Positions 119 to 9,658 of a DNA stretch of 9,658 bases are shown in pieces. The position numbers and the translations under genes were made by a program. The notes beneath the pieces are model-generated. The model was not told where the DNA came from and did no database searches. It saw nothing but the letters and a program-made list of their open reading frames with translations. This DNA comes from Caedibacter taeniospiralis. GTDB lineage: Bacteria > Pseudomonadota > Gammaproteobacteria > Francisellales > Francisellaceae. The stretch spans positions 8,214-17,871 of the forward strand of contig NZ_PGGB02000018.1 in assembly GCF_002803295.2 (NCBI RefSeq), in the 5' to 3' direction. How positions within the stretch are numbered: the first letter of the stretch is position 1; every line of letters begins with the position of its first letter.

Positions 119-2224
119 CTATTTACGCTCATATCGACCGTACAAATGCATCTTTTTAAGTGTAAAGGCGCCATTATGCACTTGACCTGACAGCACAATC
201 CAAAATGAGCGTGCAGTAAACTGCAAACGACGATTCATCATGACACCATGTTGCGCTAATCTTAATCCTGAATGACTATCCAAACCCAATGGGACACTAT
301 CCAAAAAATCACCTTTAAAGTCCAAAGAATAACCTTGATGAATATCTTGAGAAAGATCGAAATAACTTGGCCAGTCACCAAAAACACGTAACGATAGTTG
401 GTTGGCTTTATTGATGGCGAAATCAGAAGAGTAGTCAGCAACAACATCATATCGTTTACAGGCAAATCGTCTTGATTTAAGGCTTTTAACAGGCAATGCC
501 CAATTAAAAGTAAATGCTTTGCCGTCATCGGTGTACACATGTCTTAAGCCAACATGATCAGCATACTCTAAAACATTGTTACCAACCGATAGAAACAATC
601 TCCCTAATGCACTGACAAAGCTACTAGCAAATTGAAAAGCTCCTGAAAATAGACTAAAACTGGTTACTTGCGTACTGATGGTTGCAATGACTGTTTTTTC
701 AAAACCTATTTTGAAGCCAATCATTGTGCCACTGCCATAATAAAAACTTCGACAGTTTTTATAGGCTGTATTAGTAGCTTGTGCTGAATTGACGTAACGT
801 TGAATCAGTGGGTCTAAGGCATTCACACTGGATACGGCTGGTTGCTGAGCAATATTCAAAGTGCCTAAACTGACTAAGCCAGTCGGGGAAACAAATAGCA
901 CGTCATTTCCAACACACTGTACTAAATTGCCATGCACTAAACCTTGGTTGAGTGTGATTTGCCATTTAAAATTATCAATATCAAGTGGATTGTATCCACT
1001 CCATATCTGTAATTGTTTTCTGCCAAATAAGACAAGATGATTTTGGATTGAGCCAATAGCTTCTAATTGATCAGTAACACCATGCTTATTGGAAACATCA
1101 ATATAAGACACTTGTTTGCTATCTTCGTCAAACCAGCTCGTGATAGAGTCAGCGCGATAACTGTAATACACCTTCAAAGGGCTTAATCTATAGCTCAAAC
1201 TAACAGCACCTTCACTTAACGCCCACAATCGGTTATGTAGTACGTACAGAAAACTAAAACAAGGTGGATAATCTTGATAGAAAAGTTTAACGCCATTTTC
1301 AAACTTAGGCAGTACATCGTTAACCTTGACCGTGACTGTTTCATCTGTTTGTGTCGCATCACTCACTTGAAATGAATAATTCCTGTCGTTAACCTTCAGA
1401 ACAATCGTATTACCAACATATTTTTCAATTGGTGTAATTTTGCCCCACTCAAATGTGAACTGCTCATCATCTAATCGCTTAAAACTTTGCGCAGAAGAAA
1501 GAACGTAATCGCACACTTTGATAATCTTATCACCATCAAAACGGATAATATTATCTATGCCATTGCAGATAATAAGCTCATCTTTGAAAAAGACCGCTCT
1601 AGGAATAATATTCGTAGCCAAATGCTCGTATAATTTAGTGAGTTTATGATGTAAATAATCATAGCAATACAAAGAACCTGAGCCATGATATATCTTGGTT
1701 ATTTTACCGTGCGCAACAGGCTCTGCAATAAAGTTATTTTGCAGATCAATCCTAAGTGTATTCTCTGATTGATGAGTGATTCTGTAATGAGCAATCAGCT
1801 GCTGTGCGCCTGAATTTTCATATTCAATTTTGATGCGATCAGCAGTACAGTAACACTCAATGTTTTTGCTAGCAAATTCGACACACTCAGCAGAAATGAG
1901 TTTCGCGTTAGCCCATGTTGTATCGAAGGTGAACTCGCTGACATACAACAGCAAAAGTTGTCGTCCATCTCGATGACAAAAATCGAACATTTCAAGGATG
2001 ATGCTGTCATGTTTTAAACCTTCAGTATAATGCTCAGCATCATAGGCAATAGAGGGCAAGGCTTTGCTTCCGTACCTCACTTTGCCTTCACCTAGGGGCA
2101 AAGCAACCATATTTTCCAATAGGTAGCTGCGATTCTCTGGTAATGACTCAGGCGAGATATTTTGATTCATCCCATAGACTGGTATAGCTGCCTCGATAAT
2201 CTCGTATTGACCACTTTTCAACAT
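119..2224 (-). CDS. tail tubular protein B-like (nozzle; T7 gp12-like)
   Basis: 701-aa ORF with ATG at 2224 and AGGTG (2232-2236) 7 nt upstream. It follows a roughly 200-aa gene downstream of the capsid gene, as in the T7 gp11/gp12 order. The N-terminal YGMNQNISPESLPENRSYLLEN and the C-terminal ...LYGRYERK resemble, from memory, the N- and C-terminal patterns of T7 gp12. No alignment was run. Confidence 0.55.
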   Translation of the reverse strand: MLKSGQYEIIEAAIPVYGMNQNISPESLPENRSYLLENMVALPLGEGKVRYGSKALPSIAYDAEHYTEGLKHDSIILEMFDFCHRDGRQLLLLYVSEFTFDTTWANAKLISAECVEFASKNIECYCTADRIKIEYENSGAQQLIAHYRITHQSENTLRIDLQNNFIAEPVAHGKITKIYHGSGSLYCYDYLHHKLTKLYEHLATNIIPRAVFFKDELIICNGIDNIIRFDGDKIIKVCDYVLSSAQSFKRLDDEQFTFEWGKITPIEKYVGNTIVLKVNDRNYSFQVSDATQTDETVTVKVNDVLPKFENGVKLFYQDYPPCFSFLYVLHNRLWALSEGAVSLSYRLSPLKVYYSYRADSITSWFDEDSKQVSYIDVSNKHGVTDQLEAIGSIQNHLVLFGRKQLQIWSGYNPLDIDNFKWQITLNQGLVHGNLVQCVGNDVLFVSPTGLVSLGTLNIAQQPAVSSVNALDPLIQRYVNSAQATNTAYKNCRSFYYGSGTMIGFKIGFEKTVIATISTQVTSFSLFSGAFQFASSFVSALGRLFLSVGNNVLEYADHVGLRHVYTDDGKAFTFNWALPVKSLKSRRFACKRYDVVADYSSDFAINKANQLSLRVFGDWPSYFDLSQDIHQGYSLDFKGDFLDSVPLGLDSHSGLRLAQHGVMMNRRLQFTARSFWIVLSGQVHNGAFTLKKMHLYGRYERK

Positions 2225-4628: not shown

Positions 4629-5609
4629 TCAGCGACTACTTAAAGCTTGATTGAGCAGACTGCTTAGACTATTGTCTTTGGTTAGGAGACCTTTTGCTGC
4701 TTTATCTTGCAAGTAATAATTTTCACTGTAAATGTATTCGCTACTATGCTTGTATTCTAATATTTCTTGCTGTAACTTGTCAATCTCTTTTTGCTTATCA
4801 GCTAACGCTTTTTGGTAATATTTGCTGAGTTTTTTGATGCTGCCTTTCTGCGTTAATTCCTGGTGTACTGGCATATATTCTTCACCTGCTTTTAACATCG
4901 CACGTGTTAAGGCAATAGAATCCGATTTCAAATGCTTAAATTCCTCAAACAAATCCATTAACTCAGACTCATCGCCTGTTTTGAGTAATGTCTGAAAAGC
5001 ACTCACTTTCTCATCAATTGCCCCATCATTGGTGTATTTCTTGAGATTGGCAATTTCACTATCCCATATTGACGCATATTCAGTCAAAGGATGACTGTTA
5101 ACTTCTTCTTTACCCTCTTTACCCTCATGCTGGGCATCTTCAAACAATTCAGCAGCTTCTTCAGCGGTGAGTTTGCCTGACTCCACACAGTCATGAAGCT
5201 TTTTGTCTAAGGTTTTAAGCTTACGTGATAGCTGATTTCCCCATTGCAGCGTATCTTGATGCTTTTGCTCAAGTAATAACAACGCTTGCTTTATGTCTGG
5301 TTCGTCTGACTTTGAATCAGCCATCTTTTTTTCTTCTTTTGCTTCTTTTGCTTCTTTTGCTTCTTTTGCTTCTTTGACGTTTTTTGCATCTGTCTTAGAA
5401 TCAGAGGTGCCATTATTGTCAACACCACGACTTGATTGCTCTTTAGGACGATTAAAAATATCTATCAAAGAAACCTTTGTTTTGTTTGTTTTATCTGTTA
5501 TATTTTTTTTAGAAGCTTCTGATGTTTTTGATGTTTTTGATGTTTTTAATGGATTCTCAGATGCTTCTATATTCTCTTGATTCAACAGTGACTCATTTAG
5601 TTCAGGCAT
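4629..5609 (-). CDS. scaffolding protein
   Basis: 326-aa ORF between the portal and capsid genes. It is highly charged with K/E-rich, low-complexity, helical-looking sequence (KTSKTSKTS, KEAKEAKEAKEAKEEK). GGAGGA (5615-5620) lies 5 nt upstream of the ATG at 5609. Confidence 0.75.
   Translation of the reverse strand: MPELNESLLNQENIEASENPLKTSKTSKTSEASKKNITDKTNKTKVSLIDIFNRPKEQSSRGVDNNGTSDSKTDAKNVKEAKEAKEAKEAKEEKKMADSKSDEPDIKQALLLLEQKHQDTLQWGNQLSRKLKTLDKKLHDCVESGKLTAEEAAELFEDAQHEGKEGKEEVNSHPLTEYASIWDSEIANLKKYTNDGAIDEKVSAFQTLLKTGDESELMDLFEEFKHLKSDSIALTRAMLKAGEEYMPVHQELTQKGSIKKLSKYYQKALADKQKEIDKLQQEILEYKHSSEYIYSENYYLQDKAAKGLLTKDNSLSSLLNQALSSR
5333..5376. repeat. 9-bp tandem repeat (cttcttttg, about 4.9 copies) inside the scaffolding gene
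   Basis: Read directly from the sequence. It encodes (KEA)n on the minus strand. Confidence 0.9.
5521..5547. repeat. 9-bp tandem repeat (gatgttttt, 3 copies) inside the scaffolding gene
   Basis: Read directly from the sequence. It encodes KTSKTSKTS on the minus strand. Confidence 0.9.
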
Positions 5610-5773
5610 TATCTTCCTCCAGCATCTGTTATATTTAGATTATCCGATTGATTTGCTTGATTACTCTTCTGCAATATCATTTGAAAATCTTTAGCAAGGT
5701 CTTCGTAATCTCTAATTCCTAAACGTTTGAGCAACGCTGATGATTGTAATATCAGCATGGCATTTTGATTGCT
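5609..5773 (-). CDS. orphan 3' coding segment, probably the displaced C-terminal end of a portal gene
   Basis: The frame ...SNQNAMLILQSSALLKRLGIRDYEDLAKDFQMILQKSNQANQSDNLNITDAGGR* is open. Its TAA (5611..5609) overlaps the scaffold ATG in a TAATG arrangement. The only internal ATG (5758) has no SD, so it looks like the tail of a longer gene rather than an independent gene. It is too short (under 60 aa from ATG) to appear in the supplied ORF track. Confidence 0.4.
   Translation of the reverse strand, partial: SNQNAMLILQSSALLKRLGIRDYEDLAKDFQMILQKSNQANQSDNLNITDAGGR
5615..5620 (-). promoter_or_regulatory. Shine-Dalgarno site (GGAGGA) for the scaffolding gene
   Basis: The reverse complement of tcctcc is GGAGGA, 5 nt before the ATG at 5609. 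It is embedded in the last codons (..AGGR*) of the upstream coding segment. Confidence 0.75.
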
Positions 5774-5808
5774 GAGCAACGCTCGCTGCGAGCCATGGAT
5801 AGCGGAAC

Positions 5809-6074
5809 GCGAGGGCGAGTAGACCCGGGTAGCCTTGCGCTGTTGATCAGCAAGCGACGTGCCGAAGGCGCCAGAGCGAAGTCTGTGAAAAAGCTTTTAC
5901 CCAAGGCGTAGAGTAGAATCGGAAACGTGTTGTCTGTTCGGAATGAGCGTAGCGAATTTGTGAGGACAAGCACCGTTGAGGCGGGCGGCCCGGGCAAAAT
6001 TTATACCGCCGAGGATAGCCGATTCGATTTTGTGTATGGATATACAAAATCTATCATGAGGCCCGAGGCACCCT
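5809..6074 (+). repeat. copy 1 of a GC-enriched, hairpin-rich inverted-repeat element (true left end uncertain, possibly about 5774)
   Basis: My base-by-base comparison shows the reverse complement of 5809-6074 equals 9393-9658 except for one position (G5985 versus its equivalent at 9482). GC is 138/260 in 5811-6070 versus 41/100 in 6101-6200, both by hand count. All reading frames are open, so there is no coding signature. Confidence 0.95.
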
Positions 6075-7733
6075 GTCAAGTCGAGCCTGTTGCTCTTGAG
6101 TTGGACTTTCAAAATCAGGAACTTCCTCAATATGAATAGACAAAGGCAATGTCCTGATATCATTGACAACCACTCGCTTGCCGTCCACATCATGAACACA
6201 ATTCAAAATGACAATTTCTCGCTTCTCATCTTCTGTCAAAATCTGCGATTCAAGAAAAGCACCAGAGCCAGATTGAATTAAATTAAGCATCATTCTCGCT
6301 TCACGTTTCTTCATCAATTTAAGATTATCAAACGCAATCGTCTGACCTCTGACTGAGTTCACTTGCCGCGCTCTGATTGCTACACCACTTTGCGCATTGG
6401 TTTCTTTGCCAAGCGCCTCATCATAATACCCAGAGACACGTTGTATATCCTCAACAGTCTTTTCTAGTAAAGTAAAATACCCACCAGAAATTTGATTATT
6501 GGCATGCAATTCAAATCGACTTCCTGGTGATATTTCAATAGCAGCACCAGGATCGCTTAACATCGCTTCAATTTCATGTGGTTCTTTGTTAGAGAAAGCA
6601 CCTTCATCATAAATTGCGCGCGTGGAACTTAATAAATAAGACAGTCGAGTTTGTAGTGAATTGTATCTACGCTGTACAGGTTTCATTGAAGACAACCAAC
6701 CGTCGGGAACTCCATCACTATAGCGTCGTGACCACAGACAAGGAATATAAGTAAAATCTGGAAGATCAGGTACATTAGGCTTTAACGGCGCATATTCCAA
6801 CAGTCTATCTTCAGTAAACAACACGCGCATAATTGCTTTTGATGATTTCCTTTCTAAATCAGTCATTTTCTCAACAAGGCTTAATGCCTCTTTCTCATTA
6901 AAAGTGGCAAAATAATGACCATTGATATCCATTCCCTCAAAACTCATCATCTCCTGACGATATTGAACTTCAATCACACGAACACGTCGACCATATCCTT
7001 CACCTAAGTAAAAAGTATCTAACTCAATCTCTGCTCTTTGCTGAATCTCAGGAGAAACCTCTCCTTGATATTGCTTCCACTCTTTCGCCTCTCTTACATT
7101 TTTTACAACACTAAATCTAGAATCAAAATAACTGCTATGCTTAGGCCATAATCTTTTCATTTCAGCTAACGAAATCCAGCGAATACGAATAACAAACTCC
7201 GAGTTATTCAACTGCGAACTTAAGTCATCTGGGTCAAAAAGCACATCTAACGGATGCACATGCTCATAGATAATTTCGCTTGTACTGGGTTGTTTGAATA
7301 GGTTACTCCAACCAATACCCGTAATCAGCATATCCATGAATTTCTGGGTGGCTTTATGCGTCATGTCTTGATTTTCTTGAATATGATAGCCTAAGTGCGT
7401 AATCGCTTTAGCTAATCGATCGTCTTTCACATTGCCTGAGCTACTTCTAAAGGCAACACGAAAGCGTGTCTGAACATCAACGCCTGTCAGGCTGTTAATA
7501 ATCGGTTTGACAATGTTAAGTACTTCTGGCGGATAGCCATTAGCCGATAACTTGTGTAACTGAGATTTGTCCCACTGTCCCGTACCATCGTAGAAACCAT
7601 AATCCTCTATGGCTTTTTTACGATAAGCCTTGTTCACTTGGCTCGTCGCCGCATAACGAAAATAATACTGTGCCAAATCCAGTGCTTCTTTTTGTTTTAC
7701 GGTTAATTTTTGTTCCAAAGTTAGGTACTCCAA
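6054..7733 (-). CDS. portal protein (3' end altered or truncated by repeat copy 1)
   Basis: 559-aa ORF immediately after terL. The N-terminal region has EDYGFYDGTGQW, a Y/F-x-G-x-QW motif common in portal proteins. The predicted start is TTG (7733..7731) with no clear SD. The last 7 codons (RVPRAS*) are read from the repeat element, whose boundary is at 6074. Confidence 0.85.
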   Translation of the reverse strand: MEYLTLEQKLTVKQKEALDLAQYYFRYAATSQVNKAYRKKAIEDYGFYDGTGQWDKSQLHKLSANGYPPEVLNIVKPIINSLTGVDVQTRFRVAFRSSSGNVKDDRLAKAITHLGYHIQENQDMTHKATQKFMDMLITGIGWSNLFKQPSTSEIIYEHVHPLDVLFDPDDLSSQLNNSEFVIRIRWISLAEMKRLWPKHSSYFDSRFSVVKNVREAKEWKQYQGEVSPEIQQRAEIELDTFYLGEGYGRRVRVIEVQYRQEMMSFEGMDINGHYFATFNEKEALSLVEKMTDLERKSSKAIMRVLFTEDRLLEYAPLKPNVPDLPDFTYIPCLWSRRYSDGVPDGWLSSMKPVQRRYNSLQTRLSYLLSSTRAIYDEGAFSNKEPHEIEAMLSDPGAAIEISPGSRFELHANNQISGGYFTLLEKTVEDIQRVSGYYDEALGKETNAQSGVAIRARQVNSVRGQTIAFDNLKLMKKREARMMLNLIQSGSGAFLESQILTEDEKREIVILNCVHDVDGKRVVVNDIRTLPLSIHIEEVPDFESPTQEQQARLDRVPRAS

Positions 7734-7746
7734 AAATCTTAAAAAA

Positions 7747-9171
7747 CTAAAAAATGCCTTTTAGTGAAGGTCGATTATGGTAGGTACTGTTTCGTTGAAT
7801 GTCACTTTTGGCTAACCGCTCACCACTCATAACAATGTATCGTAAACAATCCATTAAGTGATCATTGCCTTTTTTGACATGACCTTTCTCATCTCGGCTA
7901 TACATCCTGAATTCCTTCAATGTGTTGTTTAAGGTATTGAATATCTTGAGTTTGCCATTTTGGAAACGTTGCAGTACCTTCATAATACCTTCTTCTTTCG
8001 CATTATCCGCTTTGTATAAGTAACGCAAACCTGAATCGCGATACAATTGCGCTAAATCACCACCATCACGTTGTGATGACTGCTCTCCCGCTGGGTCATA
8101 AACACCGTTTATTTTATCGGCTCCCAGTTTTTTAAGCTCATAAACATGCTGTTGTGGCGTTCTTTCAGACACGTAATACTCGCCAGTCAGATACATCACA
8201 TCATTATCTCTATCAATCACAGCAAATAAAGCCGCAGTAGGATTTATCCAGCCAAAGTCTAAACCAAAAACACGTCCCCAGTGCTTAGGAATAACAAAAG
8301 GGTTAACTACAACAGCAACTTCAGAAACAGGATACACTAAGCCACTACCTAAGGATGGAATGCCATGCTTGCGTGCCTCTTTTTCATGTGGCTTTAAGGA
8401 TTTACTTAACGTTTCCTTCGCACTGTCTAACAAATGCGGATTATCGTCCCATGATGCCTGGATGTAAAAACGATTATTGACAATAGAACCTTCATCAACT
8501 TTGATAACTTCTTCGGTCATTTCACTCATTTCACTGACACCACTTCCATTGATGACTTCACGTTCAATCGTGGTTTCCTGAAACTCAAGAATCAAATCGG
8601 TTAATCCTAATAACGGTGTCATCGTTAACAAAACAATTCCTTCATTGTCTACTTCCGTAGACATCGTTCGCATCAGAGACTCAACGTAAATATCCCTTGG
8701 CGGTTCTTCATCCAAATGCACCAAATCCAACTTGGCTGCTTGGAATTTCTTCCGACCTTGTTCATATGACTTGAAGGTTAACTCAGAATAACCACCTGTT
8801 TTGTAGTCTATTTTGTAGCTGTGACGTAATCGATCAACCCCAATCACTAAGTCTTCTGCAATCATCTCCAAATAGGCTTTCTCTAAGACCTCTGCAGTCA
8901 GTGCCGTCGTCACACTCGCCGCCCATGCTTTAATCGGGCGAGTAAATCGTTTCCCTATCCACCATTGAGGATAATATCCCGTAAGGTGCATCACACTTTC
9001 AGCAACCCCACAATACGTCTTCCCCGTTCTATTGCCTGCTAAGAACAATCGCTCTTTGGCACTTGCTCCTGCTGCGTGAAACTGTCGCTGCTTTTTGTGT
9101 GGAGTATACAGCAAAAAATGCTTCTGAACATGGTTAAAAGCCGCATCAACTACGAAACTATCAATATTCAT
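7747..9171 (-). CDS. terL: terminase large subunit
   Basis: 474-aa ORF with Walker A-like LAGNRTGKTY and Walker B-like LDLVHLDEEP in the N-terminal ATPase half, followed by a C-terminal nuclease-sized domain. It is followed by the portal gene. Its ATG lies 3 nt after the stop of the upstream small gene. Confidence 0.92.
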   Translation of the reverse strand: MNIDSFVVDAAFNHVQKHFLLYTPHKKQRQFHAAGASAKERLFLAGNRTGKTYCGVAESVMHLTGYYPQWWIGKRFTRPIKAWAASVTTALTAEVLEKAYLEMIAEDLVIGVDRLRHSYKIDYKTGGYSELTFKSYEQGRKKFQAAKLDLVHLDEEPPRDIYVESLMRTMSTEVDNEGIVLLTMTPLLGLTDLILEFQETTIEREVINGSGVSEMSEMTEEVIKVDEGSIVNNRFYIQASWDDNPHLLDSAKETLSKSLKPHEKEARKHGIPSLGSGLVYPVSEVAVVVNPFVIPKHWGRVFGLDFGWINPTAALFAVIDRDNDVMYLTGEYYVSERTPQQHVYELKKLGADKINGVYDPAGEQSSQRDGGDLAQLYRDSGLRYLYKADNAKEEGIMKVLQRFQNGKLKIFNTLNNTLKEFRMYSRDEKGHVKKGNDHLMDCLRYIVMSGERLAKSDIQRNSTYHNRPSLKGIF

Positions 9172-9174
9172 TTT

Positions 9175-9411
9175 TCATGACTCAATAATTTTACGTATGG
9201 CTAAAGCTTTTTCATCTGTCAGTTGAATATCTGGAATATTTTTAACTTCCATTAATTTATCAGCAGAGCACAAAAAATATGATAGAAATACCCTAATAGC
9301 TGAAATATCTCCATTTTCACCTAATACCTGTAACTTTCTTAACTGAGCTAGAATTTCATCTTCACTGAATTTGCTTAAAATATTATGAGTAAAGGGTGCC
9401 TCGGGCCTCAT
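9175..9411 (-). CDS. small protein in the terminase small-subunit position; 5' end supplied or replaced by repeat copy 2
   Basis: 72 unique codons (FTHNILSKFSEDEILAQLRKLQ...IRKIIES*) end 3 nt before the terL ATG. The unique part (9175-9393) contains no early in-frame start; its only ATG is at Met55 of 72. The first usable ATG is at 9411..9409, inside the repeat. The track ORF extends to a GTG at 9540. The terS assignment is by position only. Confidence 0.45.
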   Translation of the reverse strand: MRPEAPFTHNILSKFSEDEILAQLRKLQVLGENGDISAIRVFLSYFLCSADKLMEVKNIPDIQLTDEKALAIRKIIES

Positions 9412-9658
9412 GATAGATTTTGTATATCCATACACAAAATCGAATCGGCTATCCTCGGCGGTATAAATTTTGCCCGGGCCGTCCGCCTCAACGGTGCTTG
9501 TCCTCACAAATTCGCTACGCTCATTCCGAACAGACAACACGTTTCCGATTCTACTCTACGCCTTGGGTAAAAGCTTTTTCACAGACTTCGCTCTGGCGCC
9601 TTCGGCACGTCGCTTGCTGATCAACAGCGCAAGGCTACCCGGGTCTACTCGCCCTCGC
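9393..9658 (-). repeat. copy 2 of the inverted-repeat element (truncated by the window end)
   Basis: It is the reverse complement of 5809-6074 with 265/266 identity. Identity still holds at the last base of the window, so the true extent is unknown. Confidence 0.95.

Follow-up and report, generated by a model that had tools for sequence, protein, structure and literature searches.

The window (i.e. the whole stretch of DNA analysed, 9,658 nt) belongs to pKAP298, an R-body plasmid of phage origin from Caedibacter taeniospiralis, and showed a 100% match to NC_005915.1 (positions 15964-25621) over all 9658 nt. This plasmid has been regarded as of phage origin and possibly as a defective phage (PMC3583457, PMC7297999). 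Head-morphogenesis genes were found on the minus strand together with two copies of a repeat, termed X, one of which splits the portal gene (Table 1). Terminase_6N and Terminase_6C domains are recorded for a product identical to the large terminase. Searches of phage databases for near and distant relatives gave no matches, and terminase relatives in viral contigs shared just 43-52% identity; neither X nor a recognisable small-gene homologue was present with these relatives. IS elements and transposases are abundant in the Caedibacter genome.

Table 1. Features of the window, with coordinates counted from its first base
Feature	Coordinates	Strand	Evidence
Scaffold-like gene	4629..5609	-	ATG overlaps stop of portal remnant; context
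Portal 3' remnant, orphaned (57 codons, ALLSNQNAMLILQSSALLKRLGIRDYEDLAKDF..., plus stop)	5609..5782	-	Translation, homologue alignment
X copy 1	5783..6074	-	Repeat search; borders from homologue alignment and 26 independent copies
Portal gene, 5' part (553 codons, P22-like, PF16510)	6075..7733	-	ORF list, translation, homologues, alignment
Large terminase gene, intact	7747..9171	-	ORF; lies between both X copies; context
DUF5681 gene, 3' part, upstream of large terminase	9175..9392	-	Reconstruction from plasmid record
X copy 2, first 266 of 292 nt	9393..9658	+	265/266 identity to copy 1; full copy in plasmid record

Portal homologues with PF16510 (n = 76) were 570-622 aa in length. In the window, the portal frame reads ...EQQARLD, is followed on the minus strand by 292 nt (6074..5783) and continues as ALLSNQNAM...; aligned homologous portals (n = 14) read ...EQQATLE-ALLANPNAM... 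without a break, the hyphen marking the junction, and all 14 were ungapped through EQQA(T/R)L(E/D)-ALL(A/S)N. Comparison of homologous C-termini with the downstream peptide, a check proposed in the original prediction, was run and the 57-codon remnant aligned with them in 14/14 cases. Residues 26-588 of the restored 610-aa portal matched PF16510 positions 3-546 of 594 (E 3e-75), and a full-length match was obtained only with X removed. The earlier claim that a foreign element divides a once-continuous portal was thus borne out by both the homologue alignment and the Pfam match across the restored junction. The portal gene was hence formerly continuous and encoded ~610 aa. The 291-nt X and one extra nucleotide now separate codon 552 or 553 from the remainder of the gene; base 6075 may be this extra nucleotide and not part of the portal.

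As had been described, the portal frame enters the repeat at 6074 and stops seven codons on (...RLDRVPRAS and a stop); X copy 1 read in the portal frame gives the tail VPRAS followed by two stops. The present product would accordingly be 553 aa with a 6-residue foreign tail, leaving the 57-codon remnant orphaned. A portal product with the identical foreign tail (554 aa as called) has also been recorded from a 41,651-nt contig. The TAATG overlap of the downstream frame with the next gene, also reported before, was seen in the sequence (i.e. remnant stop 5611-5609, ATG 5609-5607). As a counterpoint, the remnant is an intact ORF that is translationally coupled to the next gene, and a functional split gene would look alike. 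The intact appearance of the remnant can be explained by a young insertion, as the plasmid copies of X in the portal gene, in the DUF5681 gene and beside an intron were 99.6-100% identical to one another. The portal has most likely become a pseudogene through a recent disruption; the term pseudogene is one that we infer, as a portal without the final 57 residues might remain functional.

Copy 2 of X extends 26 nt past the window end, to pKAP298 position 25647; its orientation is opposite to that of copy 1, and it runs antisense to the interrupted gene. The two window copies are not fully identical, differing at one position (5985/9482). The first 23 codons of the DUF5681 gene (MPFKKGKSGNPNGR...) are located outside the window, past X copy 2. 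Removal of 292 nt from the plasmid record restored a 95-aa ORF with a match to DUF5681 (PF18932; 34.1 bits, cut-off 27.5; E 4e-8) over residues 3-61, i.e. across the junction at 23/24, while the 3' fragment alone gave no Pfam match. X has therefore struck two head-morphogenesis genes in the window, the portal gene in sense and the terminase-adjacent DUF5681 gene in antisense orientation. On this phage-derived plasmid, the portal gene and a terminase-associated DUF5681 gene have both been broken by one young repeat, which offers a tangible explanation, at the molecular level, of why this 'phage' may act as a plasmid and may form no particles. The public annotation, in which the gene fragments are entered as separate hypothetical proteins, is corrected by these reconstructions.

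X is an undescribed dispersed repeat, consisting of a 291-nt core (6074..5784 in copy 1, AGGGTGCC...GGCTCGCAGCG) and one extra nucleotide, with a GC content of 54% as compared to 39% in the remaining window. Every copy begins AGGGTGCC and ends GCAGCG, and the 5' end of copy 1 is the same as that of copy 2 and of all other copies found. Five copies are present on pKAP298, and a mini copy on this plasmid (positions 1-83 and 259-292) has kept both termini. Chromosomal copies were found in a Caedibacter integrase gene (locus L046) and a GIPGG-repeat gene (locus L058), and further copies with differing flanks in ~18 AT-rich metagenome contigs, nearly all of which break inside X and share the same start base. 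The 5' flanks among the sequences fetched defined 26 distinct insertion sites. Copies found without selection for the 5' end had complete ends in 7/7 cases, one having an internal deletion. X falls into two subfamilies.

Removal of the core and exactly one variable nucleotide restored the frame in four genes (i.e. the portal, DUF5681, integrase and GIPGG-repeat genes), and the restored integrase contained a single uninterrupted Phage_integrase domain (profile positions 2-171 of 172). Domains were also hit internally in both orientations: antisense copies in metagenome contigs lie within GlgC, whose profile starts at position 39, and DUF1016_N, whose profile starts at position 76, and sense copies cut AAA_28 and DotM_C. 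All sense frames of X contain stop codons, and its presence shifts the reading frame. These copies show that X lands at many unrelated sites and in genes in either orientation, truncating them. X is most likely a DNA-level insertion with precise ends and without inverted repeats or any target duplication or deletion. No complementarity exists between the two X ends, AGGGTGCCTCGGGCC and CCATGGCTCGCAGCG. The original prediction of a mobile element with imperfect terminal inverted repeats was right as to a mobile insertion and wrong as to the repeats. Bases adjoining X differed in 4/7 copies, which argues against a 1-nt duplication, and a 1- or 2-nt crossover or duplication of the serine-recombinase type was rejected as the junction dinucleotides mismatch between the two ends. 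The base preceding X was T in 14, C in 7, A in 5 and G in 0 of 26 flanks (p about 0.01, for one of 20 positions examined); these flanks, on the AGGG side, exhibited a weak R-A-Y bias only, with no conserved 4-5-nt target. The 3' flanks had no common tetranucleotide, albeit in a small number (n = 7). The side on which the extra nucleotide lies is ambiguous in most copies. Two hairpins unlike each other were found in X, one AT-rich at nt 24-49 and one GC-rich and imperfect ~50 nt from the 3' end. No tRNA or tmRNA was found by scanning, and no promoter-like site was found in or adjoining copy 1. No protein family is encoded by X, as its six-frame translation, used as protein query, matched two fusion proteins only.

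An intron-like reading had been proposed earlier, partly from a complementarity between GAGCAAC-AG-GCTCG (6095..6082) and CGAGC-GTTGCTC (5785..5774). This complementarity exists, but its arms are not the element ends. Deletion of 5774-6095 is in frame as claimed; its 322-nt borders, however, lie 21 nt and 9 nt away from the respective ends of the true insert (6074..5783, 292 nt), and such a deletion would take out 10 residues conserved in the 14-homologue alignment. Likewise, the downstream frame assigned 54 codons comprises 57 (5782..5612). The pairing spans the element/exon border, 3 of its bases belonging to the element: pairing with the true exon flanks was no better than in 25% of shuffles, inclusion of the last 10 nt of the element gave p about 0.014, and none of six other X copies exhibited a comparable pairing (best, the integrase copy, 0.048 of shuffles).

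If X were a self-splicing or otherwise RNA-removed intervening sequence, sense copies such as that in the portal gene would be harmless. The upstream exon pairing with the element/exon border would fit such a sequence, as would the codon-exact, frame-restoring interruption of three sense genes (portal, integrase and GIPGG-repeat), and GC-rich inserts in AT-rich phage genes are frequently introns. However, no Rfam match was obtained for X (whole window, E<=1; 5740-6120, E<=10; whole plasmid), whether to group I, including the P3-P9 catalytic core, to group II or to any other ribozyme; neither strand folded more stably than its shuffles (z +0.5 and +0.3), and the differences between the two subfamilies were not compensatory. 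There is no fixed splice-site sequence, as the junction nucleotide is variable, and the flank pairing was not reproduced at other copies. The sense-only orientation of self-splicing introns does not hold for X, antisense copies of which lie within the coding regions of DUF5681, GlgC and DUF1016. Phage group I introns in structural genes and IStrons such as CdISt1 of Clostridioides difficile resemble X in interrupting protein-coding genes, phage morphogenesis genes among them, without target duplication and in the restoration of frame by exact removal, but X differs in having no ribozyme core, fixed target or orientation constraint. Palindromic elements of Rickettsia are similarly dispersed repeats of an intracellular bacterium inside ORFs; these are in-frame and translated, whereas X shifts the frame and carries its stops. 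Removal at the RNA level is very improbable. The data seem explicable without splicing or bypass, and the case against splicing or another RNA-level rescue of sense copies is an indirect one.

Precise excision of X from DNA in some cells, e.g. on induction, would restore the portal and DUF5681 genes and constitute a reversible switch. Clean insertions, intact remnant ORFs and the exact rebuilding of four genes by loss of core and one nucleotide are compatible with excision, for which orientation is irrelevant at the DNA level. Nevertheless, an element-free allele was seen in none of the sources examined: an independent Logan assembly breaks at both window copies and shows only occupied junctions, the 41,651-nt contig yields the same foreign-tailed portal product, and the restored portal junction was absent from viral contigs, in which an X-internal 32-mer and a portal flank gave no matches either. 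The extra nucleotide would also need removal and no recombinase is linked to X. Excision is a very unlikely explanation. An assembly artefact might be suspected for the inverted copy 2 and the split, as the repeat reaches exactly to the window end and many metagenome contigs terminate inside X. This has a negligible probability given that the finished plasmid record has the same layout, with a full 292-nt copy 2 followed by the missing 5' part of DUF5681, and that independent assemblies concur. The best explanation as a whole, and a likely one, is that the portal was split by X, acting as a gene-disrupting mobile insertion that has left a probable pseudogene.

X stands outside all standard classes: it lacks inverted repeats and a duplication, shows hardly any target preference and adds one variable base. 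As to its movement, X could be a non-autonomous DNA transposon (MITE-like or PATE-like) mobilised in trans by a transposase whose gene lies at another place in the Caedibacter genome, a plausible reading that falls short of being likely; the portal disruption would be unchanged and only the mode of movement would differ. Constant precise ends at 26 sites, the complete ends of all copies unselected for the 5' end, retention of both termini by the mini copy, the weak preference directly 5' of X and the richness of the genome in IS elements and transposases argue for a transposon. MITEs and short IS derivatives (Correia, ERIC, RUP) are likewise ~0.3 kb, non-coding and multi-copy, occur in genic and intergenic positions within one lineage, break assemblies and yield deletion derivatives. 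X differs from these in lacking terminal inverted repeats and a target-site duplication, in the one variable nucleotide added and in being GC-rich in an AT-rich genome. Elements of the IS200/IS605 type have neither inverted repeats nor target duplications, and their derivatives (PATEs and REPINs, with Y1 HUH transposases) insert seamlessly, with exact removal restoring the target. Against such an origin, no conserved tetra- or pentanucleotide was seen at either end (26 5' flanks, and 3' flanks in a small number, 7), and the two hairpins of X do not appear to form a similar subterminal pair; the single variable nucleotide is unexpected for such elements and from known transposases in general, and no partner element with the ends of X was found among the sequences fetched.

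A further X copy on pKAP298 (38855-39145) continues, at a seamless junction, into nt 106 of a group II intron, which lacks its first 105 nt and was recognised by its domains V-VI (RF00029, 53 bits, pKAP298 40945-41058) and an RT ORF (PF00078). The RF00029 match is to this neighbouring true intron only and not to X. An intron copy with 98.6% identity (L057) and relatives (L052-L056) are homologous only from pKAP298 39146 onward and have GTGCGCCAAGC... upstream; the normal 105-nt GTGCGCC... start was present in the 98.6% copy and in four relatives. The contiguous 291-nt identity (38855-39145) and a weak D1-D4 match starting in X led to consideration of X as the first 291 nt of the intron; this was rejected because close relatives start with a different 105 nt, to which the similarity of X was not significant (p 0.15 and 0.8). 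Mobile group II introns, their ORF-less derivatives and fragments share with X insertion without target duplication, and one X copy is fused to such an intron, but X starts AGGGUGCC and ends GCAGCG(N), with no GUGYG...AY, no domain V/VI and no EBS/IBS-type target specificity. The group II intron reverse transcriptase is encoded on the plasmid, and several full-length copies (444-446 aa) with 98-99% identity occur in Caedibacter-type sequences; an active-looking group II intron family with near-identical copies shares a genome with X.

A group II intron RT has been reported to add mainly A at the ends of cDNA and to switch templates seamlessly (PMC3280974). Copying by the RT of the intron is suggested by the X::intron fusion together with the extra nucleotide, and the excess of T at position -1 agrees with addition of A, seen as T on the top strand. 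X may, tentatively and somewhat short of an even chance, spread via an RNA copy made by the resident reverse transcriptase. A growing DNA 3' end would switch template onto the 3' end of X RNA, the RT would copy the RNA through to its 5' end and add one untemplated base, and synthesis would go back to the DNA template; the expected outcome is a seamless 3' junction, a 5' junction with one added base and an unchanged target. The extra nucleotide is variable and not a duplication. Several observations count against this route: no transcribed master copy of X or promoter was found, the 7/7 unselected copies have no 5' truncation, the weak R-A-Y preference could reflect target choice by a transposase, the ambiguous side of the extra base applies here also, and the fusion could have arisen by X insertion and then an adjacent deletion.

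On the broader reading, which is possible yet doubtful, X would be a bacterial SINE-like retroposon, i.e. a ~291-nt non-coding RNA copied by the group II intron RT, with template switching starting alternatively from broken intron RNA instead of a DNA 3' end. Duplication-free, target-unspecific insertions in either orientation would result, together with an X::truncated-intron chimera like U6/L1 chimeras. If the route is right, X resembles SINEs and U6/L1 chimeric retrocopies in being a small non-coding RNA copied by the enzyme of another element, with defined RNA ends, untemplated junction bases and template-switch chimeras with a 5'-truncated autonomous element; it differs in having no poly(A) tail, target duplication or 5'-truncated copies, in its bacterial host and in its putative RNA intermediate. 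X would then be a bacterial counterpart of eukaryotic SINEs and a natural in vivo trace of how a group II intron enzyme switches templates, an idea directly testable in a sequenced endosymbiont with existing transcriptome data. A 7-nt match (TATGAAG) between the flank of one X copy (L028) and intron nt 106-112 was set aside as probably coincidental, reflecting a gene start that encodes Met-Lys.

The P22-like portal frame runs into a dispersed repeat (hereafter X) at 6074 and stops seven codons later, as originally predicted. A protein search with the joined query returned 76 PF16510 proteins, mostly of 570-622 aa. Fourteen of these 76 proteins were aligned with the portal and its downstream peptide, and all 14 were gap-free across the junction. 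The homologue consensus reads ...EEVPDFES.xQEQQAxL(E/Q)-ALLxNxNAxxILQS...LLKRLG(V/I)RDY...; in the window portal, foreign sequence separates ...EEVPDFESPTQEQQARLD from ALLSNQNAMLILQSSALLKRLGIRDYEDLAKDF.... As the homologues continue ungapped through the break point, the interruption spans 292 nt (6074..5783), leaving a downstream remnant of 57 codons (5782..5612) and not the 54 initially proposed. The X-free portal has 610 aa and matches PF16510 at residues 26-588. The deletion of 322 nt suggested earlier (6095..5774) does restore the frame but would remove ten conserved residues. The 12-bp pairing between the flanks is present, but three of the bases involved are part of X. Pairing of the true exon flanks only was equalled by 25% of shuffles (p about 0.014 when the last 10 nt of X were included), and none of six other X copies had comparable flank pairing, the best being the copy in a Caedibacter integrase gene (0.048 of shuffles).

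The long ORFs of the window all lie on the minus strand and together form a phage head module, in the order small gene, large terminase, portal, scaffold-like gene, capsid gene and SU10-type adaptor. The entire window is 100% identical to positions 15964-25621 of NC_005915.1, i.e. pKAP298, the R-body ('killer trait') plasmid of Caedibacter taeniospiralis, a Paramecium endosymbiont. This plasmid is seen as a bacteriophage derivative, possibly a defective one (PMC3583457, PMC7297999). A portal product with an identical foreign tail, called at 554 aa, is also recorded from a contig of 41,651 nt, which is the reported size of the sister plasmid pKAP51. Within the scaffold-like gene, a 9-nt unit (TTTTGCTTC, + strand) occurs five times in tandem at window 5328-5390 and encodes a KEAKEAKEA run.

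Features of the head module, X copies on pKAP298 and genes restored by removal of X
Feature	Position	Strand	Remark
Large terminase	window 7747-9171	-	ORF
P22-like portal	window from 7733	-	ORF; restored by removal of 291+1 nt
Scaffold-like gene	window 4629-5609	-	ORF
Capsid gene		-	ORF in head module; PF13252
SU10-type adaptor		-	ORF in head module
DUF5681 gene			restored by removal of 291+1 nt
Integrase gene			restored by removal of 289+1 nt; one continuous Phage_integrase domain, profile 2-171 of 172
GIPGG-repeat gene			restored by removal of 289+1 nt
X copy in portal gene	window 6074..5783	-	
X copy in small (DUF5681) gene	pKAP298 25356-25647		
X copy	pKAP298 33404..33115		
X mini copy	pKAP298 32013-32125		113 nt, internal deletion
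X copy adjoining intron	pKAP298 38855-39145		

A second, inverted copy of X in the window (9393-9658) is identical to the portal copy at 265 of 266 positions, and an independent Logan contig covers precisely what lies between them, ending within each copy. Five copies are present on pKAP298. The mini copy, in which a deletion between two GCCC tetranucleotides joined X positions 1-83 to 259-292, immediately follows a tandem array of TTTTTGA. A six-frame protein query with X identified two fusion proteins, a Caedibacter integrase and a GIPGG-repeat protein, each of whose genes contains one chromosomal copy. A scan with the first 20 nt found X in about 18 AT-rich metagenome contigs with unrelated flanks, all with the identical start base (AGGGTGCC); almost every contig terminates within X, as expected for a high-copy repeat. 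In total, 26 distinct 5' flanks were obtained. There are two subfamilies, about 95% alike, with a core of 291 nt (289 nt in subfamily B) running from AGGGTGCC to GGCTCGCAGCG. The termini are AGGGUGCC (5') and GCAGCG (3'), and the GC content is 54% as against 39% in the surroundings. On the minus strand of pKAP298, a more AT-rich stretch of 47 nt (48084-48130), about 70 nt upstream of a gene starting at 48015, is about 80% identical to X nt 1-47 and may be an ancient relic or may have given rise to the X 5' end.

Removal of the core plus exactly one nucleotide restored both frame and domain in four genes, and these four insertions left the target with no duplicated or missing bases. The added base differs between copies and is not inherited with X; it is not a 1-nt duplication, since the adjoining bases differ in four of seven copies. 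The side on which it lies is formally ambiguous. In the portal homologues, the junction codon is E or Q and never D, so that GAA followed by an added C on the 5' side is the favoured reading; for the GIPGG-repeat gene, taking the T on that side as the extra base brings back a perfect repeat unit. At the 26 sites, X was preceded by T in 14 cases, C in 7, A in 5 and G in none; positions -2 and -3 were A-rich and purine-rich, and no longer motif was seen.

The original prediction had considered both an intron-like element and a mobile element with imperfect inverted repeats. Both the portal and the DUF5681 gene have been split by X, a mobile DNA insertion that has no terminal inverted repeats. 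Removal of X from the small gene next to the terminase (292 nt, plasmid record) joins MPFKKGKSGNPNGRxPRKIxATT to ITHNILSKFSEDE... in an ORF of 95 aa, whose above-cut-off match to Pfam DUF5681 spans the junction; the second copy therefore lies antisense within a real gene. Among the metagenome contigs, a GlgC nucleotidyl-transferase domain and a DUF1016 domain are interrupted by antisense copies, the profile matches beginning at positions 39 and 76, respectively; AAA_28 and DotM_C domains are broken by copies in the sense orientation. Location within coding domains in both orientations indicates a gene-disrupting DNA insertion that is not removed from transcripts, and the orientation of the copies is the strongest argument against an intron. 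Removal at the RNA level is accordingly very improbable: X had no Rfam match even at E<=10 when searched as an isolated region, folded no better than shuffled sequence on either strand, and showed no compensatory changes among the differences between its subfamilies. Reversible, precise excision from DNA is compatible with the clean junctions but is unlikely, as an empty site was not found in protein records, the Logan assembly or viral contigs. An assembly artefact can be dismissed almost entirely given the finished plasmid record and the independent assemblies. We infer that the portal and DUF5681 genes are recent pseudogenes, which fits a phage turned plasmid; the portal, DUF5681 and intron-adjoining plasmid copies are 99.6-100% identical, which accounts for the survival of the remnants as intact ORFs.

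One plasmid copy (38855-39145) directly abuts a group II intron, recognised by a D1-D4 match, a reverse transcriptase ORF (PF00078) with a frameshifted maturase part, the two parts being in different frames, and DV-DVI (53 bits) ending at 41058. The possibility that X is the 5' end of this intron was rejected, as intron relatives (one 98.6% and four others 71-90% identical) show homology to it that begins only at 39146. Before this point the relatives have a canonical 105-nt start (GTGCGCCAAGC...), to which X has no significant similarity, and the plasmid intron is therefore 5'-truncated at nt 105/106. The truncated intron and a complete X form a seamless fusion at the X 3' end. An intact chromosomal copy of the intron reverse transcriptase has 444 aa. 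In sequence L028, an X copy (558-846, minus strand) is followed by TATGAAG (552-558), the same heptamer as intron nt 106-112; next comes the start of an IS66-like ORF that contains an in-frame stop. The heptamer could mark a second X::intron junction but probably reflects chance agreement with a Met-Lys start codon. The intron relatives (L052-L057) are inserted directly 3' of a Shine-Dalgarno site, a 6-10-nt spacer and ATGA, i.e. just past the start codon, except for L054, which has TTGA without a clear AGGAG site. Four distinct intron 3' ends have their own Shine-Dalgarno-like AGGAG (AAGGA in L055/L056), with an ATG placed 13 nt from the end (ATGTCTACTCGAC|; 41020-41058 on pKAP298), so that an interrupted gene could regain a translation start from the intron.

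We know of no nameable transposase mechanism that predicts defined ends without repeats or duplication, almost no target choice and one variable base, whereas a reverse-transcriptase route does predict the junction features of X. A DNA 3' end would switch onto X RNA, which would be copied through to its 5' end; one base would be added after this end and synthesis would then go back to the DNA template, yielding precisely the junctions observed. The X::intron chimera would arise if the switch onto X started at nt 106 of a broken intron RNA. The reverse transcriptases of group II introns are reported to switch templates seamlessly and to add mostly A to the cDNA end (PMC3280974), which reads as T in the top strand. 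Spread of X by this route is a tentative proposal with somewhat less than even chances, and a DNA transposon with its partner elsewhere is about equally likely: ends are complete in every copy not selected for its 5' end, there is a weak R-A-Y bias before X, and no master copy or promoter of X was detected. Disruption of a portal gene by a mobile element is ordinary. Among non-autonomous mobile elements, X represents an unclassified variant, and its link with a reverse transcriptase is suggestive.

The pKAP298 sequence has been public since 2005, and in the accessible annotation the repeat is unmarked and each of the gene fragments is entered as a hypothetical protein of its own. In RefSeq, these comprise ORFs starting or ending in X copies and the orphan portal remnant (25138-25374, 21572-21721 / 22017-23681). 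The record contains N bases, e.g. at 39364-39365 and both at and just past the 3' end of the X copy at 25356-25647. In metagenome contigs L044, L042 and L040 (JACCDZ...), X interrupts genes for Dot/Icm DotM, GlgC and a sensor protein, which look important for an intracellular bacterium and suggest that X drives ongoing gene loss.
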